Source of the DNA: an uncultured Acidobacteriota bacterium
GTDB lineage: Bacteria > Acidobacteriota > UBA6911 > RPQK01 > JAPXNP01
DNA: 64,000 bases
Assembly (NCBI GenBank): GCA_963777605.1
Contig: CAVZRV010000027.1
Span: 192,001-256,000, forward strand
Reading direction: 5' to 3'
A program made the position numbers and the translations under genes. Below the pieces are notes generated by a model. The model was not told the origin of the DNA. It was given only the letters and a program-made list of their open reading frames with translations, and did no database searches. Shown piece by piece: positions 3,723 through 57,491 of the stretch; position 1 is the first letter of the stretch, and each line of letters begins with the position of its first letter.

Positions 3723-5045
3723 ATGAGGTGTTTTCTCGCCGCTCTGCTGGCTACAGTGACGTTGTCAATTCCCGTCTCGGGCCAGGTTCCCACGCCCCAG
3801 GCCCGCCGGAATTCCAATCAGAGCAGCACGGTCCTCAAGCCCGACGCCCTGTTCGACGCAGAGTCGGGAACGCTCAGGCAGGGTTGGGGAGTGGTCGTCG
3901 TCGGCAACCGGATCACCGAAGTGGGCCCCACTGGAGAACTTTCGTCCCCACCCGGTGCCCGGATCCTGGAACTTCGGGGGATGACCCTGCTCCCCGGCTT
4001 GATCGAAGCCCACTCTCACATCTTTCTGCACCCCTACAACGAAACGCTCTGGGATGACCAGATATTGAAGGAACCGCTGGCTTATCGCGTGATCCTCGCA
4101 GCGGAACACTGCCGGAAAACGCTTTTGGCCGGATTCACGACTCTCCGGGACCTGGGTACCGAAGGAGCTGACTTCGCCGATGTTTCGGTTCAGCGCGCTA
4201 TCGACGAAGGGCGCATTCCGGGGCCTCGCCTGCTGATCGCGACCCGGGCCATTGTGGCAACAGCCAGTTATGCGCCGGGCCCGCGGGGATACGCCGACAA
4301 TGTGGATCTCCCCACCGGGGCGCAGGAGGCCACCGGCGTCCCCGAGACCGTACGGGCCGTGAGAGAGCAGGTCGGCCACGGCGCCCAGTGGGTCAAGGTG
4401 TATGCCGATTTCCGAAGAGGGCCCGGCCGTGCGTTGACTCCCACCTTCAACATCGAGGAACTGAAGGCGATGGTCGACGAGGCCCACAGCGCCGGGTGCC
4501 CTGTCTCCGCCCACGCCGCGAGCCCGGAAGGGATGCGCAGGGCCGTGCTGGCCGGCGTCGACACCATCGAGCACGGAACCGAGGGCACGGACGAGGTTTT
4601 TCGTTTGCTGGCTGAAAAGGGCGTGGCCTACTTTCCCACCCTGACGGCCGTTGAAGCCTACAGCGAGTACTTCCAGGGCTACCAGCGAGGCAGCCAACCC
4701 GAAACCGAGGAGATGCTGCAGGCGGAACGGGCTTTTCGGGCGGCGCTCAAAGCCGGAGTCACCATCGGCCTCGGCAGCGATGTCGGAGTCTTCACCCACG
4801 GCGACAACTTCCGGGAACTGGAGTGGATGGCCCGCTGTGGAATGAACGCGGTGCAAGCCCTCCAGGCCGCGACCTCGGTCAATGCCCGGATCCTCCGCAT
4901 GCAGGATCAGATCGGCCAGATCAAGCCCGGTCTCCTTGCCGACCTGGTGGCCGTCCCGGGTGACCCGACCCGTGACGTCTCGGTCGTGAAGCAGGTCGAA
5001 TTCGTCATGAAAGATGGGGCGATCATCAAAGGCGGGGAGAAGTGA
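3723..5045 (+). CDS. Secreted metal-dependent amidohydrolase (Xaa-Pro dipeptidase-like)
   Basis: Signal peptide; [37 protein letters not shown] motifs. Confidence 0.85.
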
Positions 5046-8716: not shown

Positions 8717-10793
8717 TCAATCGCGAACGTAGAGCGAAACGATTTTCGAAGACGGGATCGAGTGCTCTTCCTGGCCCACCACTTCCCTGACGTGGGGAAA
8801 CAGGTCCGGAAAGAACGCCTTCAACTGGGAAACTAAGACGTGCCTGGAATTCACCACCTCGAGCATCGCGCGTTGCGGACTCAACCCCTTGACGTTCCCA
8901 TACATGCAGTAGATCCGAACATCCTCCGAGTCTTCGATGCGGGCCGGCGTATTCTCGTCTCCTCCACCAACTTCACCGCTGTTCCGGGTTCCCGCCTCCA
9001 CCTTGAAATAGTAGATGCGGACACCCTTGGCCTGTCGGATCAACGACTGGGGGTTCCGGGTCACTCGCTCCACGTTCAGCGAGTAAAACGAGATCGGGTT
9101 GCGGGAATTCTCGATCAGGAACTGCCGCCCCATGGCCACCATGGCGTAAAGCCTTCCCCCGGCGTTTCCCGAAAACTGGTATGGCGCCCGGGCGTGCATC
9201 GCGATTCCCTGCCCCGACCGCCAGTCGATCTCACCCCCTACCGAAATGAACCAGAGACCCGGGGAAGCCGAGGGGGCATCCGGCGTTGTGAGGCGAAAGG
9301 TCTCCGAACCGGCGTCTTCACCTTGGCGGCCACGGCCCCGCTTGACTCCGATCGAGGTCAGAAAGCCGGAGACGGAAAAGAGCTGGGTCTTCTTCCCGAG
9401 CGCAAGAGTACCGGTCAACCGGTAGTCCCCGGGAGGCACGAATACCTTGTCGTGAGACCGGATGGCTTTTTCGAATGCCCCTGAGTCGTCCGTCACGCCG
9501 TCACCCCTGGCGCCGAAATCCTTCACGTTGACCGCATTCACATCCTCGAACGAGGGCCTCTTCGACCAGTGCCTGGCCTGGATCTCCGAGTAATCGGGAG
9601 CGCGATCCACATACTTCCATCGCTCCAGATTATCGACTGCCGAGACAGTACCGTTGATCATGCTGAGGCCTTCATCCGTGTGCGAGGAAAACCGTTCGAC
9701 CAGAACCCAGCGGTCCGAAGGAGCGATCGGGCGGCTGTCGGTAACAACGCTCCCTGCTCCCTTTACGTAGGTGTTTTCGAGGAAGACATTCTCGCTCTTT
9801 CGGGTAGAGACGACCGCTCCGCCCCGCATCTGAACGACACAGTCTACCAGGCTGATCCCCGCGTAGCTGGGTTCGGTCGTGAGATCGACGGCTTTCCCCG
9901 AGTTGCTCTCGATCAGGCAACCCACGAGCAGGGTTGGGACCTGGTTCCCGCCATTCGTGTAACGGATCGCCGCCTTTTCCTGGTTCCTGAACCGGCAGCC
10001 GATCAGGATCGGGAATCGGCTCTTCGAGTCCGCGAAGAACCCGTAGTCGCCACCGATCACCTCGACGTTGAAGGTTCCCGCCGCCTGCCCCGGACAGTTG
10101 TAGAGCCCGGCGAAGGCTCCATCCGCATAGATCGTGGAATCCTGCAACGTGCAACCCTGGGATCCGGAATGCTTCAACCCGATGGCCCCGGCGTGGCCGC
10201 GAACATCGATATCGATCCCCATGAAGAAGTGGCCGAAGGAGATGTTCGGCTGCTCACCCGTGCCGTCTCCGAACCAGGTCCGTGCCCAGATCCAGACCGC
10301 GATCTTGGGATTCGAGGGGTCGTCGAAGCCCCTGGCGTCCCGGGACAGCTTCAGGACCGGGCGCTTCCCCCCTTTGGTTGAACCGAGGAGGATTATCTTC
10401 TGGTTCTTGTGCCAGTAGTTGGCAACCTGACCATCCACCTGCCGGGGAGTGTCCAGCTTGTAGTTCTCCTGCTCGCAGGAGATGGTGTCCGAGATCAGAT
10501 ACGTTCCCTCCGGGAAGTAGCAGACCAGTCCGTGATCCCGGGCGTCGTTGACCCCCCTGCGGATCGCTTCGGTGGAGTCTTTCGTGCCACTCGGATCCGC
10601 CAGGTAGGGGAGCTTTGTGACATCGAGGAAGCCGTTGGCAAGCAGTTCGTCTCCAATGTTGACTCCGGCAGGGTACTTACCCTCCTGGCCGTTCCTAGGG
10701 ACAGTCCCGCAAGCCGTTGAAAGGGTTGCAAGGGACAGTCCCCAGAAAGATCAACGAAACCCAGAGCGACACCAATAAACATTTTCGCGTCAT
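8717..10793 (-). pseudogene. Secreted beta-helix glycoside hydrolase/lyase-like protein (Pectate_lyase_3/GH55-like), disrupted by a 34-bp insertion
   Basis: AGGAGG RBS + ATG at 10793 with signal peptide; DVTKLPYLADPSGTKDSTEAI..YFPEGTY and NVKDFGARGDGVTDDS..FVPPGDY repeats; removing 34 bp gives one 681-codon ORF. Confidence 0.8.
10697..10742. repeat. Direct repeat of the 12-bp palindrome AGGGACAGTCCC around a 22-bp hairpin
   Basis: Copies at 10697-10708 and 10731-10742; spacer GCAAGCCGTTGAAAGGGTTGCA forms a stem-loop. Confidence 0.9.
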
Positions 10794-12916: not shown

Positions 12917-13379
12917 CTAGTGTCCTGTCTCAGGTCATAAATGCCCAGCTTCTTCTCAATCGAGGCCACCTGCCCGACGATCCGCTCGAAGCCGTCATCT
13001 CCGAAGAGGTCATGTTCCCGGCCTTCCGGAAACGAGGAAAGATGAAATCTTCCTCCAACTTTTCGTGGTAGTCCTCGATGAACGAACGGATGATTCCGGC
13101 CGAATCCCGGATCGCTGCCTGCGGGATTTCCTCGCTGCCGTCGAGCCGCCGAATCGCTTCCTGGTAGACCAGAAGGATCCGTTTCAAGACACCATGCTCG
13201 CGCATGAGATCCTCCGCCGGAGAGATCTCCTCTTCCGGCTCCTCGGCGGCCAACAACCTCCGATTCGCTGATTCTCCGAGCACCCATCCCATGGCGAGCA
13301 GCTTCGATCCAGCCGTAGCCGTTTGAAGGAAACGCCGCCGCATCGTCTTCCGGGTAATCAAAGTGATCTGGTCTGACAC
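12917..13379 (-). pseudogene. Tat-exported hemerythrin/HHE protein with internal deletion
   Basis: RRRFL signal; EDLMREHG..HEKLEE..FP in one frame joined at ~13017 to EHDLFGDDGFE..IEKKLGIYDL in another. Confidence 0.75.
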
Positions 13380-13662
13380 GGAACCCCCTCTCAGACGAGT
13401 CGTTCACAGCCCACTGTCCCGCCGGGACGGGCCTATGCTGCCCATCATTACAACAGCGTATCTAGTCTTCTGGAATCGGCCCCGGCCCGGAAATGAACTC
13501 GGGAGATTCCCTGGAGGAGGTCGAATTCCTTTCGAAACCGGCTCAGCCGTCACTCAAGCTTCCCTCTCTTCTGACCAGACCGAAGGAGTCCGATTGTGGA
13601 GCTCTCTCACACCGAAGCATATTCCTATGGGAGAAATACACAACCGCCTTCAGCCCCATGAA

Positions 13663-14685
13663 CTACGGAGCAACCGGGGCGCACATGGCCCAGACCTGGA
13701 TCGTGGCGTTGATCGTGCCGCTGGAGTTTTCCGCGGGCACCTGGAATTCGGCGCTCCACCCCTGACTAAACAGTGGATAGGACTTAGCCAGGGTCAGTTC
13801 GTGAGAGAAAGAGTTGGAGAAGCCCGCCCCTCCTCCCAGAACACTCTTACCTGCCGGGCAGTTGACACTGAAGGACCGTATCGCAAACCGTGGCTCGTTG
13901 ACGAGTTCGTAGGTCTCGACCACCTGTTCATACCCGGAGATAGCTGAGGACACCGCCGCTTTCGGTCCAAAGGCAGCGACCGTGCTGACGTTCCCTGTGT
14001 GCACCTCCTGGACCAGCGAAACCAGCACCACCTCTCCCGAAGAGGTCGAAAGCGACACCGAACCGGCAAAGTCCGTCAGGTCAGATCCAAACAACGAATC
14101 CTCGTTCAGAAAGGCCGCCACCTGCTTCAGGGGACCGATAACAAGGTGAGCCGGATCTCCAACAGTGTGGCCCTCGGGGTCGAGCAGAACCGCCGTTACC
14201 TCGATCGAATCAGTCAGGTCGGGATTCGCGATCGCCAGGCCCGATCGATAGTCCGAGTTGATGAAGCCGCTGACTCTCGCATCTGCGACCTGCGCAGACG
14301 GCAAGACCCCGATTCTCGGCAACGGCTTGCCAACGAACAGGTCGACAAACTCGGTGGCAATGAAATCGGCATCCGCTGAGAGACGGACCCATCCCCGGGA
14401 CAGCGTTCCGTCTCCACTCCCGAACGTCACGGAACCGGTTCCCAGTGGTGCAACCGATAGGAACTCCACCTTCAGCAGTGAACCATCAAATGAATAGAAG
14501 TCGGCGCGGACTGCAACCTCTCCCACGGTTGCGGGGTTGTGGATCGAGAAGGTCGTCGTCGAACCGGCATCGATTACCGCCTGGGCAAAGTAGAGATCCT
14601 GGCTGCCGAATTCCGCCGCCACAGCATAGACCGACATCCCCGCAAGCAGGATTATCACCGGCAGGAGACGCCGCAAGAGCAGCAC
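13663..14685 (-). CDS. Secreted protein: shared ~220-aa module plus C-terminal CPAGK.VLGGG domain
   Basis: Signal peptide; LYFAQ..TTFSIHNP..GWVRLS..SGLAIANP module; start codon uncertain. Confidence 0.75.
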   Translation of the reverse strand: MLLLRRLLPVIILLAGMSVYAVAAEFGSQDLYFAQAVIDAGSTTTFSIHNPATVGEVAVRADFYSFDGSLLKVEFLSVAPLGTGSVTFGSGDGTLSRGWVRLSADADFIATEFVDLFVGKPLPRIGVLPSAQVADARVSGFINSDYRSGLAIANPDLTDSIEVTAVLLDPEGHTVGDPAHLVIGPLKQVAAFLNEDSLFGSDLTDFAGSVSLSTSSGEVVLVSLVQEVHTGNVSTVAAFGPKAAVSSAISGYEQVVETYELVNEPRFAIRSFSVNCPAGKSVLGGGAGFSNSFSHELTLAKSYPLFSQGWSAEFQVPAENSSGTINATIQVWAMCAPVAP

Positions 14686-14930
14686 TTTGACAAAGACGTC
14701 ACTTGTTCTGACAAGCAAGGGACAGTCACCTGTTCTGGTCGGCTCGATTAGGGGCTGGGAACAGGCGAGGAGCCGGCAAGTTCTCGATGCATCGGTCATC
14801 AGGTTCTCCCTCCGACAGGCCAAGCCTGTCTTTTCGACCCACATTGAAACGGTAAGACATTGGAAAGGTTAATCTTGTACCTTCACGAAGGAAATATGAA
14901 GAATAAAAACCTGGCAGGGTCACCGGGACG

Positions 14931-15400
14931 TCAATTCCCCGGGTTGACGGGGAACGCGGTTAGCGTCGGCAGCCCATCGGGGAAAATCGCCCCCGGGCTA
15001 ACCTGACGAAGCACCATCGCCGCAACGGGCCGGGAACTGTGGACCACTACAACAGCCCGAGTTTCCTTGAGCCGATCGAGAAGCCCAGGGTCTGACTCCC
15101 CTGATTCGAGGGCGTACAAATGGAATCGTCGTAGGGGGCGTCAACCGTCAGGTTCGCCCCCTTGCCGGTCCCAAGCACGTGATTGTAGTCCTGAGTGTGG
15201 ATGCTTCCGTAGATCCGGTCGGGATCGAACCCGACGTTCTCCATGATGTCAATCTCGCCACAGGCAGGCCAGCCGACCTGAGAGATGTTGGTCCCCAGCA
15301 TCCAGCTCGCCGGCCACATCCCCTTGCCAGTGGGCAGCTTGGCCCGGACTTCGATCCTCCCGTATGTCCAACTCTTCCGCCCCGTACGGGTCAGAACGCT
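14931..15400 (-). pseudogene. Remnant of a GH16 glucanase fused to the C-terminal end of the shared module
   Basis: YGRIEVRAKLP.G.G.WPA.WML and EIDIME catalytic motif; continues into SSRPVAAMVLRQ..TLTAFPV; 5' end absent. Confidence 0.8.
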
Positions 15401-16309
15401 CAAATTTTCAGATTCTTCAGATAGGCAACACTCTGACGGGTGAGCGCCCAGTTCTGCTCGACGAAATAGTTTTTGACCCCACCCACCGGGGCGGCTTTGA
15501 AGGTTTCCACCCAGTTGATACTGCCCTTGCCCACCGGAACCTGGGGATGCCTCATCCCACGATACTGCGGGGGAGTTCCCTTTGGGGGAGGAACCAGGCG
15601 CTTCATGTCGATGTCCTGGAGGTGCATCGAGAAGAAGCGGCCCGGGTATTTCCGAAAGTAATCGGCCCCGACCAGTCCCTCGGTGATGGTCGACATCTGG
15701 AACTGAAACTTGACCAGTTCAGGATCGAGCAGGTCGAAAAGCCGATCATAGGTCAGCTGGCCATCGATCTTCGAAAGTTCAAAGCCTTCGTTGTGAAGTC
15801 CCTGCTGCATGCCGTTCTTTGCCGCGACCTCGGCGATCCGGTTGTATTCTTCGGCCGCTTGCTTCACCTGGTCCAAGGTCGGATGACTGCCCCCGTTCCC
15901 CTGCCCCAGCGTCGCCGAGATCATCTGCGTAATGCCCACATCATGCGCCCACTCAATGCTCTTCTCCTGCTTGTGCCGAAGTTCATCCATCGTGAAGTGA
16001 GAGCTCTCCGACTGGAGGCCATGATCGGCCATGATCTGCTTCACTTCTTTGCCATTCGAGAGCGAAGCGAACTCTGGGACCGTATCCGATCGGTGAACAG
16101 AGCTCGAGTCGGGTTACTCCAATCTCGGAGATTTTCTTCACAAAACCGGGAAAGTCCGAAAGCATCGAGCGTATGGGCCAGACCTGGCTGCCGATCGGCA
16201 TGCCAAGTGGATTGGCGCGAAGTCCGGCCGAATCGGACAACAGTATTCCAACTGCGCCAGTGCCGATTGTTGCTCTCGTGATGAATCGTCGTCTCGAAAT
16301 CTTGCTCAT
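15400..16309 (-). CDS. Tat-exported sugar phosphate isomerase/epimerase (AP endonuclease 2 TIM barrel), frameshift near 16075
   Basis: SRRRF signal; GLHNEGFE, MHLQD, VGKGSINW, YFVEQ motifs split over two frames. Confidence 0.8.
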
Positions 16310-16799
16310 TCGTGTCTCCTTTAGAATCCGGTCAGCCCGCAAAGCCTGCGCCTGACCTTGCAGCAACAAGACCATCTTCCCCCTTCCCGAGTCGAAACTG
16401 AAGTCCCCACTGCGGGGAAATTCAATCGGACCTGCTCCACTCCTTGTCGCCTCAGAGTTCCGTGCCTAAGATGGAGTCCGCACCAAACCAACGGAGTTGC
16501 ACCATGAGAATCTGTGTCGGGAATCCGGCTGGGGCTGCTTTCGTGATGGCCATCGACAACCACTTCAACGGCGAGCGGAGAGGGCAGGCATGGGCGCCAA
16601 GGGACACTCACTTGTCAAATCACCTTTCCAGTCAGATTGAGATGTTCCGGAAACACCGCTTTGACGTTGTCTATCCTTGTCGAACGGAGCGCATACCTGG
16701 ATCAACGGGTGAGACTATTCGAAGAGTTCGCACCTCGACTCTTTGAGGAGCAGCGGGACTCGAAGGCTCGGAGGGCTGTACAATCTGGCCAATAGTGGC

Positions 16800-19430
16800 A
16801 TGAAGATTTCCAGTTTCCCTTACTGAACGCCTGCCGAAGTCGAGAACCGGTGCCACCCGGCATGCCTTCTCGTTTGCCATCCTGCTATATGGGTGTCTTC
16901 TCATACTGCTCTTCTCGGACGTGCTGTTTCTGAATCGCACTCTGGACCCTTATCCGTTTCGTCCCCGGTATCGACGGCACCACGCTCGCGAAAGGCGGGA
17001 AGGGACCGGTATTCTGCAACGACGCAGGAGCGGTAGTCTGGGCATACCAACCCTGGAACATCCTGGTTCACCGGTCCCTGTTCGAGGATGGACAGATCCC
17101 TCTCTGGAATCCCTACCAGGCCACCGGAACGCCACTGGCTGCGAACTTTCAGTCCGGAGTCTTCTCTCCCCTTCAGTGGCCTTTCTTCCTGTGGACATCT
17201 CGAGCCTGGTGGGATTTTCTCTTCGTGGCCCGCCTGTTGCTGGCGGGAGTATTCACGTTCCTCTTCCTCCGCCGGATTGAACTCCCCTTTGCCTCAGCGT
17301 GGCTGGGCGGCCTGGCCTACATGCTCAGTGGTTACCTGATTGACTACATCAACATGAACCACCTGGCGGTGCCGCTCCTCCTGCCCTCCGCCTTTTACTT
17401 CGCCGAGAGCTGGAGACGGCTCGGAAGTCGCCGGCATTTCCTGGGCACGGTTGCGTCGTTGGCACTGATCGTCCTCGCGGGAATGCCGGAGGCTTCTCTG
17501 CTTGCCTGGTTCATGGTGGGCGGTTTCATTGCGTTTGAGCTCTTTCAGGACAGGAGTCCGCTCCGGGACTGGCTGCTCTGGACAGCTGATTTTCGGACTG
17601 GCGCTCCTGGTCGCTGGCGTTCTCCTGGTTCCCGGCCTGGAGTACCTCTCACTGGCCCACAGCAAGCACTTCGTTCAGGAATGGGGAACCCGCTCTTTCG
17701 ATCTTCGGTCCGTCATCGGGCTCTGGATCCCGTACTTTTTTGGGCCCCCGGGCGGAGTCGGTTGGTCGCCGGTCTTCGACAAGGCTTTTGACGTCCCCTC
17801 CGGTATCGGAGTCCTGGTTCTCGCCCTTTCGATTGCAGGGGTCCTCGGTTCCAGTCTCCGTCTTCGGTGGTTTTTCGCGGGATGTGCAGGCCTGGGACTG
17901 CTGAAACTTTTCGGGTTTCCGATGCTGAACGCCGCCGGTTCGCTTCCCGTGCTGCGCTTCATCATCTTCACGAAGTACCTTCAGCCGAGCATCGCCTTTT
18001 CACTTGCGGTGCTGGCCGCCACAGGTTTTTCGACCCTGCGGCCAGAAACCGGTCCGGTCTCGTGATCACCGTAGCGGCGGGCATTGTCTGGGCCCTCACC
18101 CTCGGGTTCACCTCGTTGAACGCCGAGGCAATTCTCGCAGCGCAACCTCTTCTCCGGCTCGGGGTCGCCGCCTGTATCCTGTTCGCGTTGCTCATGTGCG
18201 CTTTCCTCGGCGGCTGCCGGATACCTGCTTTACCGGGGCCGCGGGAAGATGCCGGCCGTGATATTTGCACTCACGACCTTGGAACTCTTCGGCCTGGCTG
18301 TCCGCCTGCACCCCGACCGCCCCAAGCAGTGCCGTTGAAACAACTCGGACCGCCCGGACTGTCAAAGGCCTCGATCAAGCGTATCGGCTAACGGGAGGGC
18401 AGGTGCTGTTTCCGAATGCGGCCTCCCGTCTTGGCGTCCCGGACCTGCGAGTGTTGGACCCTCTGCTGCCGGAGAACCTGGGATCGGCGCTGGCGGAACT
18501 GGCCGGTCAGCCGATTCAGTCTCGCTTTTCAGGGGACGAGTTCACCGACTACGACCACCCCGCACTCGACTGGCTCGGAGTTCGTTATGTTCTGTCCCGC
18601 CGCGACATTCGCAACCTGTTGCTGCGCGGTCCGTCCCCATCGCAGGAACTGGCGGGAGACCTGTGAACTCAGTGATACTCGCAGAAGGACTCGATTCCCC
18701 TCGTTCGCGTGAGTCCTTCGACTCACTGCCAGTTTCGGATTCCGGAAGAATCACAGTTCCAGATCATCCTGAAAGCAAACGCCGGCGGAATCTTCCAGCT
18801 CAAGAGTGGCAACCGCCTCTTGCTCAGAAAGAGCTACCGTCCCGGGCTGAGTCGTCTCGGCCCATTTCACGATGACGAACTGCGCAAGGTGGGTTACCAC
18901 TCGCTGGTTCAGGTCGAGACGACCGGGACGGTCGAAGTGGCGGCGGTAGCCACTGACAGCGCAGGAAACCCGGGCCTGTTGCCCTCCGGGGATTCGACCA
19001 GCGGAATCCGAATCTTCGAACGGCCTTTCGCCCGCCCGATTGCGTGGGTTGCTGATCGGAAGCCGGCCCTGGACAAGTCCATCCGTGACTGGCCCCGTCT
19101 CGGTCGGGAGGCAGAAACATCGGCGGAAAGAGCGCATCTAGGGTCGTCCGTCGAACCGCCAATCGGCTGGAGTTGCAGGTCCCGGGGCAGGCCGGAGGGT
19201 ACCTGATCATTGCCCAGACTTTCTTTCCGGGCTGGACCTGCCGTGATCAACGGGAAACCGGCACGACTCGAACGACTCGGGAACCTGCTTACAGGTGTTC
19301 CCGTTCCAGCCGGAACCCTGAGAATAGTTCTCCGCTATTCGCCCCACTTCGGTTTGGATCGGGTTGCTTCATCACCCTGACCGGGCTTGATTCTGGCAGC
19401 GGATAGCGGCATGGAGCGTGACCCGTCCGG
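16800..19430 (+). CDS. YfhO-like polytopic membrane protein (GT-C type), multiple frameshifts
   Basis: Successive frames give [46 protein letters not shown]; ends approximate. Confidence 0.65.
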
Positions 19431-19478
19431 GCTCGGATGGTATTCTGGGTGAAATTCCCACTCACAGGAGCGGACCAA

Positions 19479-20367
19479 ATGACACGGAAAACGGCTTCTG
19501 ATTTTGACCCGGAACTGCTCAGACTCTACGACCGCTACGTCCACGGCGGGATCTCCCGCCGCGGGTTTCTGGAAGGGGCCAAGCGGTTCGTGGCCGGAGG
19601 CCTGACCGCGGCGGCGATCCTCGAAAGCCTCAACCCCGATTACGCGCTGGCCCAGCAGGTCCCAAAGGACGATCCGCGAATATCGGCCGAGTACGTCACC
19701 TACTCCTCTCCGGAAGGGTACGGAACCATCCGGGGACTGCTGGCTCGCCCCTCCGAGTCACCGGGGACACTCCCCGGTGTCCTGGTGGTTCACGAAAATC
19801 GCGGTCTCAATCCCTACATTGAGGACGTTGCCCGTCGCCTGGGAGCTGCCGGTTTCCTTGCCCTGGCTCCCGACGGACTCACTCCGGTCGGCGGCTACCC
19901 GGGGAACGACGACAAAGGAAGAGAACTCCAGGCCAGTCTCGACGGCGGGAAGATGCTGGAAGACTTCGTGGCGGCCGCCGGTTATCTGAAGAATCGTCCC
20001 GAGTGCACGGGTAAAATCGGAGTGGTCGGCTTCTGTTACGGCGGCTTTGTCGCCAACACCCTGGCGGTCCGACTGCCCGACCTGGCGGCCGCGGTTCCGT
20101 TTTACGGACGGCAGCCTGCGGCCGAAGATGTGAGCCCGGATCAAGGCCCGGCTGTTGATTCACTATGCCGAGAACGACGAACGGGTCAATTCCGGCTGGC
20201 CGGCCTACGAAACTGCGCTGAAGGCAAACCACGTGGACTACCAGGTGTTCATCTATCCCGGAACCGTCCACGGTTTTCACAACGACACCACGCCCCGTTA
20301 CAATCCCGAAGCCGCCGAACTCGCCTGGAAGCGCACCATCGACTTCTTCAATCAGACGCTTCGCTGA
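19479..20367 (+). CDS. Dienelactone hydrolase family protein (YghX-like), frameshift near 20133
   Basis: [29 protein letters not shown] nucleophile, [11 protein letters not shown]. Confidence 0.88.
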
Positions 20368-20393
20368 CCGAGCCCGAACCGGAGGGGCTCGGT
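20367..20393 (+). terminator. Hairpin after dienelactone hydrolase
   Basis: ACCGAGCCC-N9-GGGCTCGGT 9-bp stem followed by pyrimidine-rich sequence. Confidence 0.4.
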
Positions 20394-20444
20394 TCCGTCT
20401 TCCCTGTGCCTTTGCCGCCTGCTGCTCGAGACGGAGAAACCGCT

Positions 20445-20923
20445 ATGGAAGTGACTGTGAAACTGAGTGTCAACGGTGTTGCCCGAACGGTGACTACCGA
20501 CCAGCGACGCCGGTTGCTCGACGTTTTGCGGGAGGAGTTCGGACTGACCGGTTCGCGATTCGGATGCGGGGAAGGTCAGTGCGGGGCCTGCACGGTCCTC
20601 ATTGACGGCAAAGCTTCACGGTCATGCATTACCCCGATCTCGGCAGTCGAAGGCAAGTCAGTGACAACGATCGAAGGGCTCGCTCAAAACGGGTCACTTC
20701 ATCCCGTCCAGGAGGCATTCATCCAGCACAATGCGATGCAGTGCGGATACTGTACCAGCGGGATGATCCTCACAACGGTCGCACTTCCTGAATCGGAACC
20801 CGAATCCCACCGAAGCCGAGATCGTCGCCGCGATGAATGGAAATCTGTGTCGCTGCAACGGTTATCCGAAAATCCTGGCCGCCGTCCGCGAGGCGGCCCG
20901 CAAGAATGCGGAGTTGAAAGTGA
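20445..20923 (+). CDS. (2Fe-2S) small subunit of a xanthine dehydrogenase-family oxidoreductase, frameshift near 20787
   Basis: [26 protein letters not shown]; 3' end uncertain. Confidence 0.85.
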
Positions 20924-23081
20924 TGGACGAAGAACGGGTCGAACACTCCCCGATACTCTACGCGACCGAAACCATCACTGAGAGTCCGTTCGTTCGACGC
21001 CTTCGACCGGCGGACGTTTATCCAGGCTCTTGGCACGGGCCTTCTGATCACCGTCGTTCGAGGTGCCGGCGCGGGCCCAGCAGAGCAGGGGTCTTTCACC
21101 CAACGCGGTCGCGGCTCGCCTTTACCTGAACGCGGACGGGACCTTCACGGCCCTCAGCGGAAAGGTCGAAGAAGGCCAGGGCCCGCGCACCGAACTGTTA
21201 CAGGCAGCGGCCGAGGAACTCCACGTCCCGCATGACCAGGTCCAGCTGGTCATGGCCGACACCGACCAGGTACCTGACGACGGCATCACCGCCGGCAGCC
21301 GTACCACTCCGATCAACGTGCCCCAGATGCGGAAGGCTGCGGCCACTGCCCGTGAACTGCTCCAGAGACTGGCCGCGGAGTCCTGGAAAACCGAGGTCTG
21401 CCGAACTCGAAATTGAGAACGGGACCATCCGCAATGCCGCAAGCGGGCAGTCAATGGCCTACCGCGATCTCGCAAAGTCGGCCAATGCCCGGTCATCGCT
21501 CGAGGCCCCGGTCCAACCCGACGTGAATCTGACGCCGGTCGGTGACTGGAAAGTGATGGGGCAACCCGTTTCCAGACCGAACATCCGGGACCTGGTGACC
21601 GGCAATCACCGATACCCATCCGACATCGTCCGCCCCGGCATGCTCTACGGTGCCGTCCTGCGTCCCCCTTCCTTTGGTGCCGAACTGAAATCGGTCGATC
21701 TCTCCCCGGCGAAGTCCATGGAGAAGGTGGTGGCCGTCCAGGATGGATGCCTTTGTCGGATGTGCCGCCCCGGCATCCTACCTTGCCGCGCAGGCGGTGG
21801 AAGCTGTGGCGAAGACGGCCCAGTGGGAAGAGAATGCGCCGGACGTATCCCATCAGACCATTCATACCTACCTGACTGAGCATGCCGATCGAGACCGCGC
21901 CCGTCCCAACGAGCGGGGATCCGTTGACGAAGGCTTCCGCTCGGCTACCACGCAGTCTCGACGCCACTTACACCCTGGCCTACATCCAGCACGCCCCCAT
22001 GGAACCGCGCGCAGCGGTCGCGGAATGGGACCGGGACAGGCTAACGGTCTGGGTGGGCTGTGACGGTCCATTCCGGGCCCGGAACCAGCTGGCGGAGGCG
22101 TTCGGTATCGCACCCGAGAAGGTTCGCGTGATCGTTCCCGACATGGGGGGCGGATTTGGAGGTAAGCACACCGCCGAAGTGGCGGTCGAGGCCGCCCGGC
22201 TTGCCAAGGCTGCCGGCAAGCCGGTCTGGATTCGCTGGACCCGGGAAGAGGAATTCACCTGGGCTTACTTCCGTCCGGCGGCCGTCATCGAGTGTCGCGC
22301 CGGCATGGACTCCCAACACTCGATCACGGCGTGGGAGTTCTCCAACATCAACGCGGGCGGCTCCGGCATCGACACGCCCTACGCGATTCCGAACACCAGG
22401 ATCACTTCGATCCGGTCCGATTCTCCGCTCCACCAAGGGTCCTACCGCTGTCTCGCCGCAACCGGGAACAACTTTGCCCGGGAGTCCTTCATGGACGAAC
22501 TTGCGGCCGCCGCCGGGGCCGACCCGGTCGAGTTCAGGCTGGCACACCTCAAAGACGGCCGAATGCGGGCGGTACTCGAATCCGCCGCCGAACGATTTGG
22601 CTGGGCCCGAGCGCAGCAGGGAGAACTCCCCCGATAAGGCGGTCGGAGTGGCGTGCGGCACCGAGAAGAATTCCTACGTCGCAGCCTGTGTGGAAATCGG
22701 CAATCGACCGCACCAAGGGGCAAATCCACGTCCGGGAAGTGACTGAAGTATTTGAATGCGGCCCGGTTTTGAACCCGGACAATCTCCTTGCCCAGGTCCA
22801 GGGTTGTATCAGCATGGGCCTGGGAGGAGCACTCTCGTGAAGAAATTGAGTTCAAGAACGGCAAAATCCTGAATCCCACCTTTTCCCGATACCGTGTGCC
22901 CCGCTTCCGGGATCTTCCGAAAATTGACGTGCACCTTCTCGACAATACCGATATCCCGCCAGCAGGAGGGGGAGAGACTCCCATCATCGCCGTGGCTCCG
23001 GCAATCGGGAATGCTGTCTTTGCGGCCACCGGAATCCGCCTTCGTTCCATGCCGATGCCCGGAGAAGCGCTGAAGGTATAG
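20923..23081 (+). CDS. Molybdopterin-binding large subunit (IorB-like), several frameshifts
   Basis: [58 protein letters not shown]. Confidence 0.85.
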
Positions 23082-23126
23082 CCATAACACCCGCCCAGGC
23101 GGTAACTCGCATCGGATTCCTGCGGT

Positions 23127-23500
23127 GCCAGCTTCACGTTGCCGCAGATCGCAAACGGGACGGCATCAAAACCCGCTTCGTTCTTTAAAATCCGGGTTAC
23201 TCACCGGGCACGGCAACCCTGAAGCTGACCGACGAAAACAGCCAACCTCTGGTCGTGAAATTCTCGACCAACCAGACCAACAGCCAGTTCAACCTGGCCC
23301 TCCCGGCGAACGGATCTCTGTTCCGGGGAACGGATGATACCGTGACGGTCCCTGTAGGCTACTTCTTCCAGTCGGCACCGGCCGAGTCCGCCTCAGGTTC
23401 TTACTCGGGAAGCGTGGATTTCATCAACGACAGCTACTGGATCGTCGTTCCCGTGGAACCTACGAACTGGCTTTCAGCGCCCTGGCAACAGCTTCCCAGG
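23127..23500 (+). pseudogene. Remnant of the shared secreted-protein module
   Basis: FTLPQIANG / GIKTRFVL*NPG..GTATLKLTDENSQPLVVKF..FNLALPANGS; one frameshift, TAA at 23186, no start. Confidence 0.6.
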
Positions 23501-23601
23501 AGGACGGCACCGCGAGCTACACGATCGAGAAGCGGGTCTCTGGGGTTGCGCTGCGGGAGAACGGAACACAAATAGGCGTTCGTCCCGTTTCTATAACAAC
23601 C

Positions 23602-23745
23602 GTAGGACTGGGGTCGTTCGGCGCGCGGTTCTCCGTGGCCGATCGGCCCTCCAGCCTGCCCTGAGCAGCGGCGCATCGTACCGGAAGGCCCAGCGACCCG
23701 CGTCGTCTGCCTGCCGGTCACGAATACGCTCGACCGGCCTCCTAC
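23602..23745. repeat. GTAG-type REP/REPIN-like inverted pair
   Basis: GTAGGACTGGGGTCG (23602) and CGACCGGCCTCCTAC (ends 23745) are imperfect inverted repeats. Confidence 0.5.
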
Positions 23746-24143
23746 TGGCGCAAAAGGGCGTCCGGCCGGCAAGTGTCGATCCCTTTCCCTTTCCAAGGGA
23801 CACTCCCTTGTTGAACTTATCAACTGTTGGCCGATTGTTGGTCTTGACGCAAGAGATTTACTTGTTCGGATGCAATGTGAGTCTTGATAGGCGAAAAGCC
23901 TTCCGGTGGGAGGAGACGAGGCCGAACGGCCGGAGCCATTGCCTCAAGTCAGCACAGCCAGGGGCAAACGCCACTTCGGACTGACGCCAATCTAACCGGC
24001 TTCAGCTGACAGGAAGACAATCTAAACACCAGAAGAGTGGCTTGTTCGGCTCAACTACACTCACGGATCTTACAACCAGGCTTCAGCTTCCCAAATTTCA
24101 GCGAGAAACGCGATCTTCGAACTACGAGTTCCACACGGCGGGC

Positions 24144-25070
24144 TCACGTCTGAACGAAATTGCTGCGGGGGCCACGAACCGCATAAAGGTTGCCAACCCC
24201 GAGCGGAACCGGTTCTCGGTCGCTCGTGTAGATACCCCTCTGCCGGTACTCATCGAGGGTCCGCTGCACCTCATCTTCATTGCTCACAAGGACCCCCCGC
24301 GTAAACGGCGCAATCGCCTCCCGGTAGCAGCCCCGGGCAAATCCTTCCCGCTCCATCTGTTCAGCCAACTCCACCGGGATCAGCCCATCGTTCTCCTTCG
24401 ATGCCTGCGTCCCCCGCCAATACAGCCGACACCAGAACAACCGCTCGCATTCCTCCGGACTGCCCCCGCCCATCAGTTCCTCGATCGGCATCAGCCAGTC
24501 GTCCCGGGCGTGTCGCCGCATCCAGGCCGACGAGAAGCGCCACTGCTCGGGCCATTTCACCAGATGAGCCCGAAGGGCGTTCAACTCCACGTAAAAGACA
24601 GTCTCGATCAGGTTGCTCGACGTCGTCAACTGGAAGCGATCGGCCCAGAAACGGCCCTTGCGGTTGTAATGCTCGTTGTACCAGCGGGCGTAGGCGGACT
24701 GGATGTTGCGCATCAGTTCGCTGAGGTTGAACAGACGCCGGTTGAAGAGTTCCCACTGGCGATCGTTCCAGCACGAGTAGGGACGGTAGCGGGGATTGGG
24801 ATAGAAGCGTTGGGCGATTTCCAGGAGTCTTCGTCGGGAGAGCTTGCGGTAGGCCTGGAAGCGGACGACGAGGTGGTAGTGGTTGCCCAGGACGTTGAGG
24901 GCGGCGACGGAACAGAAGTAGAGGGAGCAGAAATGGTGGATGAGAAAGATGAGCTGGAGGGCATTTTCGGGTTCCTGGAGGGGATAATCGCCGATATGAC
25001 CGGCGACCAGGCCTCGGACGTGGAACAGGCCTCCGGCAGTGGCGTTGAGGTTGCGCGCCAGACGAGCCAT
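24144..25070 (-). CDS. REP-associated tyrosine transposase (RAYT, Y1 HUH family)
   Basis: LGNHYHLV HUH motif, YARWYN...RKGRFWADRF, YVELNALRA catalytic Tyr, PEQWRFSS; 308 aa from ATG 25070. Confidence 0.88.
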   Translation of the reverse strand: MARLARNLNATAGGLFHVRGLVAGHIGDYPLQEPENALQLIFLIHHFCSLYFCSVAALNVLGNHYHLVVRFQAYRKLSRRRLLEIAQRFYPNPRYRPYSCWNDRQWELFNRRLFNLSELMRNIQSAYARWYNEHYNRKGRFWADRFQLTTSSNLIETVFYVELNALRAHLVKWPEQWRFSSAWMRRHARDDWLMPIEELMGGGSPEECERLFWCRLYWRGTQASKENDGLIPVELAEQMEREGFARGCYREAIAPFTRGVLVSNEDEVQRTLDEYRQRGIYTSDREPVPLGVGNLYAVRGPRSNFVQT

Positions 25071-25296
25071 CGAAGCATTCCTTTCTGAAGACCGACGATC
25101 GGGGCCTTCATCCATAAAGAACGTTCGAGGCGAAAGAAGTGCGAGAATGTGCAGCTGGAGGGACGAGAGAATGTCCAAGACGCATCGGGCCGAAGGCTCC
25201 CAGGCGGGATCCCTCGAATGGGCGGGCGGGTGCAGAAAGGCTCGGACACCGGGGCTTTCCCCGACGCATCGGTGGAGCGCAGCGGGAGCCAGGAAT

Positions 25297-25373
25297 CCAG
25301 GCAAGGAATCTAGGGACACTCCCTGTCGTTCCCTCCCAGGCAAGGAATCTAGGGACACTCCCTGTCGTTCCCT
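25297..25373. repeat. Tandem 38-bp perfect repeat (period 39)
   Basis: CCAGGCAAGGAATCTAGGGACACTCCCTGTCGTTCCCT at 25297-25334 and 25336-25373. Confidence 0.95.
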
Positions 25374-25389
25374 GGCAAAGCGCTTGATT

Positions 25390-27307
25390 GAATCGCACAG
25401 CTTGCTGCCCGTGCCAGGGCAAATACTCTTGGGTTGCGGAGAGATTTGAAAAAGACGCGTTCATTAACATCGACAACCCCGCGAAGGTCAGCGAGTACCT
25501 CGCGAAATTCGAGAAAGAGCGCACCGGCATCCGTGACCGTATCGCAGATCTCCGCAAGCTCACAACGCTTCCCGGTGACCAGTCTCGGCTCTCTCAGATT
25601 GAGGCCGACCTGAACGTCTACCTCGATGGGATAACCACCGTCTTCAAGAAGGTCCAAGCAGGAAAGATCACCACAGCGGAGGCAGGAAACCAGGCAGTCG
25701 GGTAGTTCAAGGACGAAATCCACCGACTGGAGAACAGCGTCTTCGAGCTCTCCGACGAAGCATTTTCTCGAATGGATGCCCAAAAGGAGACGCTGAGTGC
25801 CGCTGAAACCAGCGCCGTCTCCAAGATGGTGATGTTCACCTGTTTGGCTCTCGTCGCAGGAGCCGGCATGGGGGTCCTGATCACTGGCAGCATCACCCGC
25901 CCGCTCCGGTCGGCGGTTTCGGTGGCGAAGCAGATCGCGTTGGGAGACACATCCATCAAGATCGACACACCCCGGAACACTGATGAGACGGCAGAGTTGA
26001 TGCAGGCCATGGCAATGATGGTGTCATCGCAGACCCAGATGGCTGAAACGGCGCAAAAGATCGCCGATGGAGACGTCTCCGCCAGTGCCCACGCCCGGAG
26101 CGAGAAAGGCGTGCTGGGCAAGTCCTTCGGCGAAGTACTGACGGCGCTTCAGGACCTTGTAGCGGAAACCGGCCAACTTGTGCGAAGCGCCAGGGAGGGG
26201 AATCTCGAAGCACGGGGAGATGCCGGACGATTCCGGGGAGCATACCGCGAACTGGTTCAAGGAATTAACGAGACTCTTAATGCAGTTACTGGGCCGATCA
26301 ACGAAGCAGCTCAGGTGCTGGGGCGCGTTGCGCAGCGGGACCTGACAGCGCGAATGGAGGGTCACTATCGCGGTGAATTCTCCAGGATAAAGGACGCTCT
26401 CAACGAAGCCGTGGGGAATCTCGATCTGGGCCTCGGCCGTGTGTCGGTGGGAGCCGATCAGGTGAGCACAGCCTCGTCTCAAATCAGTGCCGCGAGCCAA
26501 TCTCTTGCTCAGGAGGCCTCGGAACAGGCGAGTTCACTCGAAGAAGTCAGCAGCAGCCTCCACGAGGTTGCCGCCATGGCCGCGACCAACGCATCCAGCG
26601 CCAAAGACGCCCAGTCCATGATCCGGGAAGCCCGGCTGAGCTCCGTGGCAGGCGTGCAGGAGATGGGCTTCTTGAGCAACTCGATGCAGAAAATGAAGGC
26701 CTCCTCCGAGCAGACGGCTAGAATTGTCAAGACGATTGACGAGATCGCCTTTCAAACCAACCTGCTGGCTTTGAATGCCGCAGTCGAGGCGGCTCGAGCC
26801 GGCGAGGCGGGAAAAGGCTTTGCGGTGGTAGCCGAAGAAGTCCGCAACCTCGCGATCCGAAGTGCCGAAGCAGCCAAGAACACGTTCCAACTGATAGAGG
26901 ATTCGGTGGCGAACGTTGATGACGGGTTCAAGAAGAACAACGCCCGCCTGGAAAGGCTTGAAGAGATCAATCAGAAGATCGAGTCCGTGGAAGAAGGGAT
27001 GGGCAAGGTTGCTGCTGCCTCCGAGAGACAGCGCGAGGGGATTGGCCAAGTGAATTCGGCGATTGAACAGATGAATCAACTGACCCAGGAAACGGCAGCA
27101 AGTTCTGAGGAATCCGCGAGTGCATCACATAATCTTCTGGACCAGGCACAGGAGATGAGAGGAGTCGTGGAGGACTTCAAACTGGGCCATTCCGGGAACG
27201 CTGCGGCCTCGACATATCGAGGCAATCCCCCAGCCGAGGAGCAACTCCCGACCAAGTACCCTTCGTCGAATTCGCTTGGAAGAACGTTCGCCCTGCACCG
27301 AGCCTGA
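25390..27307 (+). pseudogene. Methyl-accepting chemotaxis protein, 5'-truncated, with frameshift and in-frame TAG
   Basis: [34 protein letters not shown], HAMPs and TM2; four-helix sensor remnant ARANTLGLRR/FEKD; TAG at 25703; no TM1 or start. Confidence 0.85.
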
Positions 27308-27496
27308 TTCCGTAGCGAGCAGGTCCTGTTCAAAGTTCATTTGCGGCTCGGGGAGAACCGGGCCGATGAGTGGAAATCTGCTCGATTCCTCCCAGCCGCC
27401 GATTACGCTATCCTGTTTCTGCGCGGCACTCAGAGGGTGACAGACTGGATTCTGTCTCTCTCGAAGGAAGGATGATGACTTATCGGCTCCAGGAAC

Positions 27497-27968
27497 TTGA
27501 AGCCGGCTAAGGCCTGGACGGTTGAAATGGACCCTTCCCAGATCGACCAGATACTGGCAAACCTTTGCATCAATGCCCGGGACGCTATCACCGGCGTTGG
27601 GGAAATTACGATCGAAACCGGCAACGTGATCTTTGACCAAGCCTATTGCGACGGCCACCCCGAGTTTGTTCCGGGAGAGTTCTCGACGTTGGCTGTCAGC
27701 GATGATGGATGCGGGATGGATCGCCCGGGAGTACGAAGGGACGATAGACCTTCTCATAACAGACGTGGTCATGCCCGAGATGAACGGAAAAGAGCTGGCG
27801 GCCACCCTGACGTCGATGCACCCCCATCTCAAGTGCCTCTTTACTTCCGGCTACACCGCCAACGTGATCGCCCACGACGGCGTCCTCGATGAGGGAGTAA
27901 ACTTCATCCAGAAGCCGTTTCAGCTCCACGAGTTGGCAAACAAGTTGCGTGAGATGCTGGACGGCTAA
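27497..27968 (+). pseudogene. Hybrid histidine kinase remnant (partial HATPase joined to partial REC)
   Basis: DPSQIDQILANLCINARDA..VSDDGCGMD joined out of frame to IDLLITDVVMPEMNG..SGY..FIQKPF. Confidence 0.85.
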
Positions 27969-28138
27969 AGAGGGTTAACGGCGGTGGACCTCTCCGTCGG
28001 AATCACCAAATCAGGTAATTTCTCCTTGTCCGCCGCTCTGCTTCGAGAGAAACTGGCATCCCCGGAAGACGACATTTTCGTCGATTCCTGGACCGAGAGG
28101 TTGAATAGCGAATCCAAACAGCCGGGAGGAAACAGGGC

Positions 28139-30144: not shown

Positions 30145-30924
30145 TCACAACTCTCGATACTCTCCGGCACACTCCCATCGCCGGCAGGTGACGTGCTCGA
30201 TGGGGACTTCGCCGGCCAATGCGGTCGCAAAGCCCGGAACCGAAGGAAGATCCAGCAGGACCCACCTCGGGAGTTCGTTTTCCTCGTCGCCGCCCTCCAG
30301 TAAGGCGGCCGGCTCGCCAGGCCCGCAGGACACGCTGAAACGGTCCAGGGGAAGGGACAGTCCCCGTCCCACCGCTTTGACGAAAGCCTCCTTCCGGGCC
30401 CAGCAGACGAAGAAGGCCGGCTTCCGCAACTCGGGAGGCAGCCCAAGGATCTGCGCGACTTCCATCCGTGAAAAGAACCTTCGGGATACCTCGTCTACGT
30501 TCACGGTTCGGTCGATGCGCTCAATGTCGATTCCAAGCTCCTTGTCCTCAGCCAGCGCAAGCAGAGACACGTTTCCTGAGTGCGACAGGTTGAAACTGAG
30601 CGGAGTCCTTCCGCAGACTTGCGGCTTCCCGTAGAAATTCGTTTCGATCCCGATCCGGTGCGGTTCGATTTCCAGGTACTTCCCCAGTACGGCGCGAAGA
30701 AAATAGCGCCGCGCCACAAATCTCACCCGGTGCTCTTCGAATCGGAATCCCGCCGCGCGCGCGTGCTCTTCGCCGGAGAGGCTTGCGACGTACTGTGCGT
30801 TCAACGCCTGCCCGGGATCGTGCTCAGTGAGCCAGACGTGAACCTCATTTCGCCCCAGGGCCTGCGTACCGGGGGACGTCCGCCACGCGAATGGATCTGG
30901 AACAACTCTCTGATTGTCAATCAT
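30145..30924 (-). CDS. Sfp-type 4'-phosphopantetheinyl transferase
   Basis: YGKP, FNLSHSG, LGIDIE, WARKEAFVKAVG.GL. Confidence 0.92.
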   Translation of the reverse strand: MIDNQRVVPDPFAWRTSPGTQALGRNEVHVWLTEHDPGQALNAQYVASLSGEEHARAAGFRFEEHRVRFVARRYFLRAVLGKYLEIEPHRIGIETNFYGKPQVCGRTPLSFNLSHSGNVSLLALAEDKELGIDIERIDRTVNVDEVSRRFFSRMEVAQILGLPPELRKPAFFVCWARKEAFVKAVGRGLSLPLDRFSVSCGPGEPAALLEGGDEENELPRWVLLDLPSVPGFATALAGEVPIEHVTCRRWECAGEYREL

Positions 30925-57362: not shown

Positions 57363-57407
57363 GGACAAGGCCTCTTCGAAACCAGTGTCCCTGAAGTTCC
57401 CTGAAGT
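57361..57407. repeat. AGGGACA/TGTCCCT inverted pair with adjacent 10-bp tandem duplication
   Basis: AGGGACA at 57361, AGTGTCCCT at 57384, TCCCTGAAGT twice at 57388-57407. Confidence 0.7.
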
Positions 57408-57491
57408 TCGCCGGAGGCGACAAATTGATTTTTCTGTTGACATCGCCCGAAGCCTATTCTCTAAATGGTGGCTTCATTGCACGGAGGGACC

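Follow-up and report, generated by a model that had tools for sequence, protein, structure and literature searches.

Di Nocera et al. (BMC Genomics 14:522, 2013; PMC3733652) described genes resembling those of the REP-associated tyrosine transposases (RAYTs; REP, repetitive extragenic palindrome) that are flanked by inverted repeats and not by GTAG REPs; in the available text of that paper the genes are called TIRYT and the units TIRtrons. Many TIRtron repeats share the sequence GGGGWSAS and sit at similar distances from the gene, some of the terminal inverted repeats (TIRs) are partly or wholly self-complementary, TIRs are also found as singles, dimers, and clusters, and the sharpest TIRYT protein group is that of the Acidobacteria (PMC3733652). 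The GTAG and CGTC REPs were defined in the same 2013 paper. Here, we describe the segment from position 23796 to 25373 of a 64,000-nucleotide (nt) stretch of DNA from an uncultured Acidobacteriota bacterium (contig CAVZRV010000027.1, positions 192,001 to 256,000); the whole stretch is referred to below as the window. The segment contains a gene for a HUH/Y1 tyrosine transposase between copies of a short box. With a probability of roughly 0.8, we consider it to be a TIRtron, that is, a TIRYT gene together with its cognate end repeats, the conserved box of which is GGGGACA[C/G]T.

In the classification of Quentin, Siguier, Chandler & Fichant (2018; PMC6006769), as far as its available text shows, TIRYT corresponds to subclass 2.1, and subclass 2.3 is nested. 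Members of subclass 2.3 have the motifs NHYH and YVDLNP, a median length of 325 amino acids (aa), a 55-aa insertion after the HUH strand, an insertion of ~10 aa between β1 and αA, a C-terminal domain of their own, and several copies per genome. They were reported in Chromatiales and Alteromonadales, and that text gives their flanking repeats as not found. The signature Y-x-x-x-N marks class 2, whereas IS200 transposases have Y-x-x-x-Q (Table 1 of PMC6006769). Bertels et al. (PMC5581495) placed their Group 1, which equals subclass 2.1 according to Table 1 of PMC6006769, among the two RAYT groups most like insertion sequences (ISs), and in the available text of their paper domesticated RAYTs are defined by a single-copy pattern.

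Transposase gene and end boxes of the window locus

The transposase gene lies on the minus strand between the box copies (Table 1), with its ATG at 25070, its stop codon at 24144 to 24146, and no internal stops, so the earlier note on this DNA was right to call it intact. A longer frame starting at a GTG exists; homologues all begin at the methionine at 25070. The Pfam family Y1_Tnp matches residues 115 to 153 only (28 bits versus a cut-off of 23), and the equivalog cut-off of the NCBIfam model REP_Tyr_transpos was missed (28.1 bits versus 80). The residues H64 and H66 of the HUH motif (NHYH) and Y160 and N164 of the tyrosine motif (YVELNA; YV[E/D]LN[A/P] across the family) are invariant across 46 aligned homologues. 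The AlphaFold model based on this alignment has a pLDDT of 84, and its top PDB match in Foldseek is 4er8_A, the Escherichia coli TnpA-REP on a REP hairpin (E value, 1.1e-4; TM-score, 0.59 on the target), followed by the transposases of IS200, ISDra2, and IS608. Relatives in the PDB were reached through the fold search only, as a sequence search of the PDB returned nothing at E ≤ 1. The protein can be placed among the HUH/Y1 enzymes, within the RAYT-like (TnpA-REP-like) branch.

The modelled protein has an insertion of ~45 to 55 aa between β3 and αC, with a helical insertion at residues ~72 to 114, and one of ~10 aa between β1 and αA, and a conserved serine (S181) follows the core. For the C-terminal ~130 aa, none of the 46 family members has a Pfam match, and a helix-turn-helix (HTH) match was likewise not obtained; beyond Y1_Tnp, Pfam finds nothing in 45 of the 46. 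An Atlas feature search with the C-terminal domain returned only fragments of similar proteins at chance-level scores. No second copy or remnant of the gene was detected in any of the six frames of the window by tblastn or a hidden Markov model of the family, and no tnpB-like gene is present.

In its architecture, the window protein resembles subclass 2.3 (NHYH; YV[D/E]LN; a length of ~310 to 325 aa; both insertions, as modelled; a C-terminal domain without an HTH match), and the family shares with that subclass the serine after the core and the occurrence of several copies per genome. The family differs from subclass 2.3 in that its hosts are mostly Acidobacteriota, a TIRYT box is found at the ends, and the W motif is WA and not WE.

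The sequence AGGGACACTCCCT occurs exactly three times in the window, at 23796, 25312, and 25351, always on the plus strand, whereas shuffled sequences give 0.12 occurrences; AGGGANNNTCCCT is found at the same three sites (0.22 expected), and a fourth AGGGACACTCCCT-like site with one mismatch is at 16600. All three copies are perfect palindromes and fold as hairpins with 5- to 7-bp stems and the same loop. Together with its flanks, the left box folds (−5.9 kcal/mol as DNA; z, −2.35) into a stem of 7 bp, CAAGGGA/TCCCTTG, closed by a loop of 3 nt, and the TCCCTT tandem repeat next to it copies the 3′ arm of the box (TCCCTT). No GTAG or GTGG is present beside any of the three copies, and the foot of the boxes carries no GTAG/CGTC tag, as the earlier note had read. 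The core of the window box, AGGGACAC, agrees with the published GGGGWSAS at 7 of 8 positions, and the 13-nt palindrome arises because the bases after AGGGACAC happen to complement its G-run.

The left box is on the 3′ side of the gene, and its core, GGGACACT, points toward the gene, as in the relatives. The other two boxes (25312 to 25324 and 25351 to 25363) lie within a tandem repeat, 241 and 280 nt before the ATG, within the range in which the closest relatives have their 5′ end box (−142 to −313). The repeat had been given a length of 38 bp; this holds for the identical unit, whereas the period is 39 bp because one extra base separates the units. The cores of both 5′-side boxes point away from the gene, and all window copies are therefore direct, not inverted. 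The gene had been described as bracketed by hairpins, which is correct in that hairpin-forming boxes are found on both sides; the arrangement of the family, however, is inverted. Because its 5′-side boxes point away, the window copy is not a textbook TIRtron.

Upstream of the start codon, the gene has a leader with a Shine-Dalgarno (SD) sequence and a hairpin formed by TGAAGGCC and GGTCTTCA, the 3′ arm of which (CCTTC) is an anti-SD sequence adjoining the SD sequence GAAAGGA. About 85 nt of leader before the ATG is kept in the closest relatives (L001, L002, L004, L006, L007, L008, L013, and L015), and the hairpin arms, in alignment rows read by eye, covary across relatives (GAAGGCC/GGCCTTC, GAGGG/CCCTC, and GCGCAGG/CCTGCGC). 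RNAalifold predicts only the pairing of anti-SD with SD on this alignment; the upstream hairpin comes from reading the rows. In IS200, a leader hairpin before the ribosome-binding site serves translational control, and the leader sequence of the window gene looks like a translational control element as well. Rfam gave no match at E ≤ 1 over 22500 to 26500, and a promoter and terminator scan over 23600 to 25500 gave nothing.

The box and copy number of the element in relatives

A protein search yielded 149 homologues among 867 candidates, the nearest of them 75% identical to the window transposase. Among the first 26 non-self hits, 22 had no contig of 2.2 kb (about one unit) or more, as expected because a repeated unit breaks assemblies. 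A profile search against 1.84 billion cluster representatives gave 237 clusters at E ≤ 1e-30, and the full-length transposase family is therefore real and of modest size. Related loci were obtained by a scan of one genome per species, in which 350 stretches were confirmed; the best 80 (L001 and onward) were analysed. They come mostly from metagenome-assembled Acidobacteriota, with a few Myxococcota, Planctomycetota, Verrucomicrobiota, and Chlorobiota, and two genomes contribute ten loci each. Boxes near the gene were counted as exact GGGACA[C/G]T (GGGACAST) within 400 nt; the full 400-nt flank is present upstream in 73 and downstream in 74 of the 80 loci. A quick maximum-likelihood tree was built from 79 proteins after L019 (10 stops) and L021 (162 aa) had been dropped.

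The box was found near the gene in 63 of the 80 loci (upstream in 62, downstream in 45, and on both sides in 44), and the motif is thus cognate to the transposase, as had been proposed; the outcome that would have spoken against the proposal, homologues lacking the motif, was not observed. Upstream copies are nearly all in the forward orientation (87 forward, 2 reverse) and downstream copies in the reverse (65 reverse, 4 forward), that is, toward the gene. Each kilobase holds 2.85 boxes upstream and 2.15 downstream, compared with 0.014 to 0.30 inside the gene and farther out. Because it points toward the gene on both sides, the box is the core of a terminal inverted repeat. Beyond 400 nt, upstream boxes are 33 forward and 7 reverse, and downstream boxes are 54 reverse and 19 forward. 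Partial ends and solo-box arrays are also seen 1 to 3 kb from elements, mostly oriented like the nearer end. In several relatives, TTGACA- or TTGCAA-like hexamers follow the upstream boxes.

In the relatives, the box reads GGGGACA[C/G]T. The end consensus of the largest clade is AGAAGGGGACAGTCTaTTTTTCC and that of the other end, as reverse complement, is GAAAGGGACAGTCTCGATT; conservation stops ~5 bases outside the core in this clade. A T-rich stretch is conserved along with the linear box GGGACAST, and the linear, nonpalindromic form is of the GGGGACACTGTTTTTC type. In contrast, no more than ten relatives have the exact 11-mer palindrome next to the gene. Folding of 141 distinct ends yields a median of −1.3 kcal/mol versus −1.2 kcal/mol for shuffles, and 63 of these ends have the GGGA arm paired. 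The two ends of an element may differ in kind, as in L020, which has its palindrome upstream and a linear downstream end, and in L029, where the sides are swapped. On the tree, where the window protein falls in a well-supported clade with L001 to L018, 11 tips are palindromic (the window and 10 of the 78 relatives), 53 are linear, and 15 have no box detected; the palindromic state changes 8 times, at least 7 of these changes being forced by well-supported branches. Since the energies of the ends equal those of shuffles, the ends differ within single elements, and the states are scattered over the tree, the palindrome is a recurrent variant and not a conserved feature. We therefore rejected the hairpin as a family-wide feature, and with it the suggestion that a very short palindrome is what the enzyme recognizes: the conserved part of the family is the linear box.

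Tandem end boxes in the same orientation within 100 nt of each other were seen in 26 of the 80 loci, and the 39-bp duplication in the window thus follows a habit of the family.

The related units are ~1.2 to 1.4 kb long. One genome (CAVUUN) contains, in addition to L008, five further copies that are 93.5% to 98.3% identical to it over 1313 to 1342 bp, making six in all. These copies end in a variant box, GGGGACGGAGT[T/A]CT. When the alignments were read, no direct repeat of the flanks was seen around them, and thus no target duplication was seen. Ten copies in another genome are 82% to 93% identical over 1.1 to 1.2 kb, and 6 to 10 or more loci per genome, up to 98% to 99% identical, were found in relatives. 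The box marks the borders of units 93% to 98% identical at five to six places in one genome. The element thus behaves like an insertion sequence, with near-identical multicopy units in several Acidobacteriota genomes. At the tips of elements, a unit of 10 to 12 nt starting with GGGG is repeated one to three times outside the box (GGGGGGAATA on one side and the complement of TGTTAGCNCCCC on the other), and the number of these tip repeats varies between copies that are otherwise 97% to 98% identical.

Rearranged 5′ end, neighbouring genes, and solo boxes in the window

In the window copy, the gene is intact, the 3′ end is normal, and the 5′ end is rearranged. The only two reverse upstream copies in relatives (L007 and L067) are the inner halves of inverted dimers. 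When the window boxes were scored by their flanks only with a position weight matrix, both orientations were inside the null range. On the right, the element adjoins a chemoreceptor remnant in which the 4HB_MCP sensor match begins at profile position 68 of 181, the first ~67 positions being missing, and the frame of which holds an in-frame TAG (25703 to 25705); its N-terminal part was not found on the left side of the element. We also considered whether part of a second element survives to the right of the tandem repeat and rejected this, as the comparison of 25364 to 25700 with the inner 3′ region scored 19 and the shuffle mean was 18.4. The most economical scenario that fits the 5′ end is that a deletion would have removed the outer copy of an inverted box dimer, such as those of L007 and L067, along with the 5′ part of the chemoreceptor gene, after which the remaining inner box would have been duplicated to give the 39-bp tandem pair.

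Gene remnants had been noted on both sides of the element, and both were recovered: the chemoreceptor on the right and, on the left, a small frameshifted gene and a xanthine dehydrogenase subunit. The region from ~13000 to 28000 as a whole is rich in broken genes, and open reading frames (ORFs) of 1007 and 1063 aa are present in the rest of the window. The frame breaks in this region may reflect real decay or a local assembly error.

Table 1. Coordinates of the element, its neighbours, and box-related sites; positions are those of the window unless a related locus is named
Feature	Position	Strand	Remarks
Two boxes, TAGGGACAGTCCC and AAGGGACAGTCCC, 34 bp apart	10696-10742	+	In signal-peptide region of minus-strand pectate-lyase-like (GH28-related) gene, 8717-10787
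Solo box AAGGGACAGTCACC	14717-14730 (feature 14699-14737)	+	Between two TCAC[T/C]TGTTCTG copies
TIM-barrel gene	15400-16375		Two frames
Solo box AAGGGACACTCAC	16599-16611	+	Appears intergenic; no ORF of ≥200 aa over 16282-19436
Membrane protein gene	17225-18666		Four frames
Dienelactone hydrolase gene	19437-20981		Runs via frameshift into 2Fe-2S subunit
Xanthine dehydrogenase Mo subunit gene	21232-23081		At least four frames
Small gene	23189-23664		Frameshifted
TCCCTT tandem repeat	23780-23794	+	Period 6, 2.5 copies, 100%; just outside left box
Left end box AGGGACACTCCCT	23796-23808	+	On 3′ side of gene, 335 nt past stop codon
Stop-to-box spacer	23809-24143	−	335 nt; not conserved; ~170-400 nt in relatives
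TIRYT-type HUH/Y1 tyrosine transposase gene	24144-25070	−	308 aa plus stop; Pfam, alignment, model
Transposase leader	25079-25111	−	SD GAAAGGA, 25079-25085; upstream hairpin, 25085-25111
Tandem repeat carrying two boxes	25297-25373	+	Period 39 bp, 2.0 copies, 100% identical
Chemoreceptor (MCP) remnant	25388-27307	+	Adjoins element; profile match
Histidine kinase fragment	27497-27889		
Inverted half-boxes AGGGACA/TGTCCCT, 18-nt spacer	57361-57409		Half-boxes span 57361-57392; overlap stop of ORF 55572-57362
Solo-box or partial-end sites in relatives	L009, 1890-2080; L011, 5246-5295; L022, 360-391; L030, 2921-3028; L068, 1512-2295; L074, 4378-4534		
Tip repeats in relatives	L008-L011 and L016, ~2850-2890 and ~4170-4210; ends of L002, L005, and L007		

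The related motif sites elsewhere in the window are real. AAGGGACASTC has five hits (10730, 14717, 16599, 23795, and 30352, all on the plus strand) against 0.13 expected, and GGGACAST has 13 against 4.7 expected, a number reached in 1 of 100 shuffles. The observation that the motifs lie beside short duplications was borne out too: the window has 18 tandem arrays, and 4 of them are in contact with a box, compared with 0.15 at random and with 4 reached in none of 20,000 runs; without the 39-bp array, the count is 3 of 17, reached in 3 of 20,000 runs. The geometry of a repeated sequence, a spacer, a box, and the repeated sequence again recurs at 23780 and 14699 and recalls the partial outer repeats of relatives; these duplications may be due to enzyme action or to replication slippage.

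Two of the solo boxes, at 14717 and 16599, appear intergenic and match the left end together with their flanks (CAAGGGACA[C/G]TC[A/C]C[T/C]TGT), the latter sharing 18 of 19 bases with the left end box (CCAAGGGACACTC[A/C]CTTGT). The 14717 box is probably just upstream of the true start of a minus-strand gene (13663 to 14844), as judged from a signal-peptide-like stretch. The box at 30352 lies within an intact phosphopantetheinyl transferase ORF, which agrees with its earlier description as coding and undisturbed, and may be a chance occurrence. The half-box pair at 57361, which is followed by a 10-bp tandem repeat of 2.2 copies, is perhaps a minimal dimer of the box, or else a hairpin resembling a terminator.

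In the pectate-lyase-like gene, two copies of GGGACTGTCCC delimit a 34-bp unit. This unit puts the mature part out of frame with the signal peptide, so that one frame contains MTRKCLLVSLWVSLIFLGTVP and the other continues with GTVPRNGQEGKYPAGV. In homologues 76% to 82% identical, the signal peptide is uninterrupted and of matching length, and the box-bounded unit therefore breaks this gene. The two boxes and their spacer fold as one 45-nt hairpin (z, −4.84). Named homologues of this neighbour are from Planctomycetes and Verrucomicrobia, whereas relatives of the transposase are mostly from Acidobacteriota.

Classification, movement, and alternative explanations

The TIRtron reading is carried by the RAYT-like HUH/Y1 gene without GTAG REPs in the window and, in the family, by flanking repeats at similar distances from the gene with GGGGACAS where GGGGWSAS was published. 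The family also shares self-complementary TIRs, solo copies, dimers, clusters, and an Acidobacteria group with the TIRtrons of PMC3733652, and it goes beyond what the available text of that paper describes in having at least 10 loci per genome and copies up to 98% identical. The locus had earlier been taken for a little-described class; the class was named in 2013, and both its box and its Acidobacteria group are in that text.

Several points weigh against this assignment. (i) The window has only reverse copies upstream, a state seen in no one of the 62 relatives that carry an upstream box. (ii) In 17 of the 80 loci, the exact core is absent within 400 nt; in several of these, as in several of the 15 tree rows with no box detected, this is because CAVUUN copies carry the variant box. 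(iii) Two loci of one genome, L003 (2771 to 3941) and L004 (2770 to 3941), are 99.3% identical over 1172 bp that do not include the box; this common stretch begins just inside the L004 box and ends 20 nt past the stop codon, and L003 is without any box. This pattern suggests gene conversion or a different mobile unit. (iv) The literature using the terms TIRYT and TIRtron, which is sparse, yielded no TIRYT biochemistry. (v) The likeness to the 2013 TIRYTs is one of box, layout, and published descriptions, and the resemblance to subclass 2.3 is one of motifs and lengths.

By analogy with TnpA-REP and the IS608 TnpA, the enzyme would bind the box on single-stranded DNA. Y160 would cut beside the box and form a 5′-phosphotyrosine link, with a metal held by H64 and H66; to judge from the partial outer repeats, which end in GGGGA, the cut would fall directly behind GGGGA. 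Rejoining of the ends by the enzyme would let the unit move with no target duplication. The tandem end copies, solo boxes, and short duplications would arise as by-products when strands are transferred between nearby boxes or when replication slips at them. A further step can be offered only tentatively, namely, that the Acidobacteriota clade is possibly an active autonomous IS family with HUH/Y1 chemistry and a linear G-rich box, the ends of which toggle to REP-like mini-palindromes and so represent a TIR-REP intermediate, and the by-products of which (tandem ends, solo boxes with duplicated flanks, and mini-insertions of the 34-bp type) locally break genes.

With TnpA-REP and the REPtrons, the family has in common the top fold match and inverted cognate repeats that flank the gene and are also scattered elsewhere. 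In REPs, however, the foot is GT[AG]G and the stems are longer and imperfect, and the RAYT is ~165 aa long and single-copy; the window stems are 5 to 7 bp, perfect, and without a GT[AG]G foot, and the relatives are multicopy within genomes, unlike canonical RAYTs. These features bear on the proposal that the locus represents a new class of domesticated RAYT, the substrate of which would be the very short hairpin AGGGA-CAC-TCCCT and which would disperse in a REP-like manner and remodel the host genome. We regard this as improbable. It would account for the perfect palindromes and 5- to 7-bp hairpins of the window copies, the 11 palindromic tree rows, the solo boxes enriched around the gene and touching short duplications, and the 34-bp box-bearing insertion that breaks a gene. 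Conservation, however, is limited to the 5′ arm and loop, the 141 ends fold like shuffles, the palindrome needs the 8 tree changes and differs between the ends of L020 and L029, and the class and its box were already on record (PMC3733652). Moreover, the multicopy, near-identical relatives are the opposite of the single-copy pattern given in the available text of PMC5581495. As for genome remodelling as such, these data support nothing more than the usual side effects of a mobile element, since the relatives are multicopy like ISs.

Family members share with the IS200/IS605 elements (IS608 and ISDra2) the HUH/Y1 chemistry, the multicopy state, and the lack of an observed target duplication. 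The ends of IS608 carry hairpins on one strand. An IS200/IS605-type IS with same-strand subterminal hairpins, moving by the "peel and paste" route of IS608, would thus explain the three window hairpins, which are on one strand and have the same loop, the absence of a visible target duplication around multicopy relatives, and a fold common to the IS200, IS608, and ISDra2 transposases. However, such hairpins hold for the window copy only: in the relatives, the ends are inverted and not direct, and most fold no better than shuffles. The YVELNA motif is of the Y-x-x-x-N type, the class 2 signature in Table 1 of PMC6006769, whereas class 1 enzymes have Y-x-x-x-Q, are ~150 aa long, and are dimeric. 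At 308 aa, the window protein is twice the length of an IS200 transposase, its top fold match is TnpA-REP, and a tnpB-like gene is not found with it. We therefore consider a placement in IS200/IS605 similarly improbable.

Least probable of all is a dead-end relic of a gene accompanied by boxes that bind another factor or act as promoter elements and have nothing to do with DNA movement: the hexamers after upstream boxes in several relatives and the abnormal 5′ end of a window copy sitting among broken genes would fit, but the box is also found downstream, inverted, and bordering units repeated at 93% to 99% identity, the gene is intact with all catalytic residues kept, and the promoter scan of the window segment was empty.

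On the TIRtron reading, the window locus itself is a mobile element with a rearranged 5′ end amid damaged genes. To the description of the family, the related loci add strictly inverted GGGACAST boxes, units of ~1.2 to 1.4 kb, near-identical copies, and no target duplication seen, as well as iterated tip repeats starting with G and a palindromic variant gained and lost repeatedly along the tree. Together, these loci give a set of substrates with which to address how a monomer-like RAYT relative recognizes a linear end instead of a hairpin and whether REPs arise from such ends.

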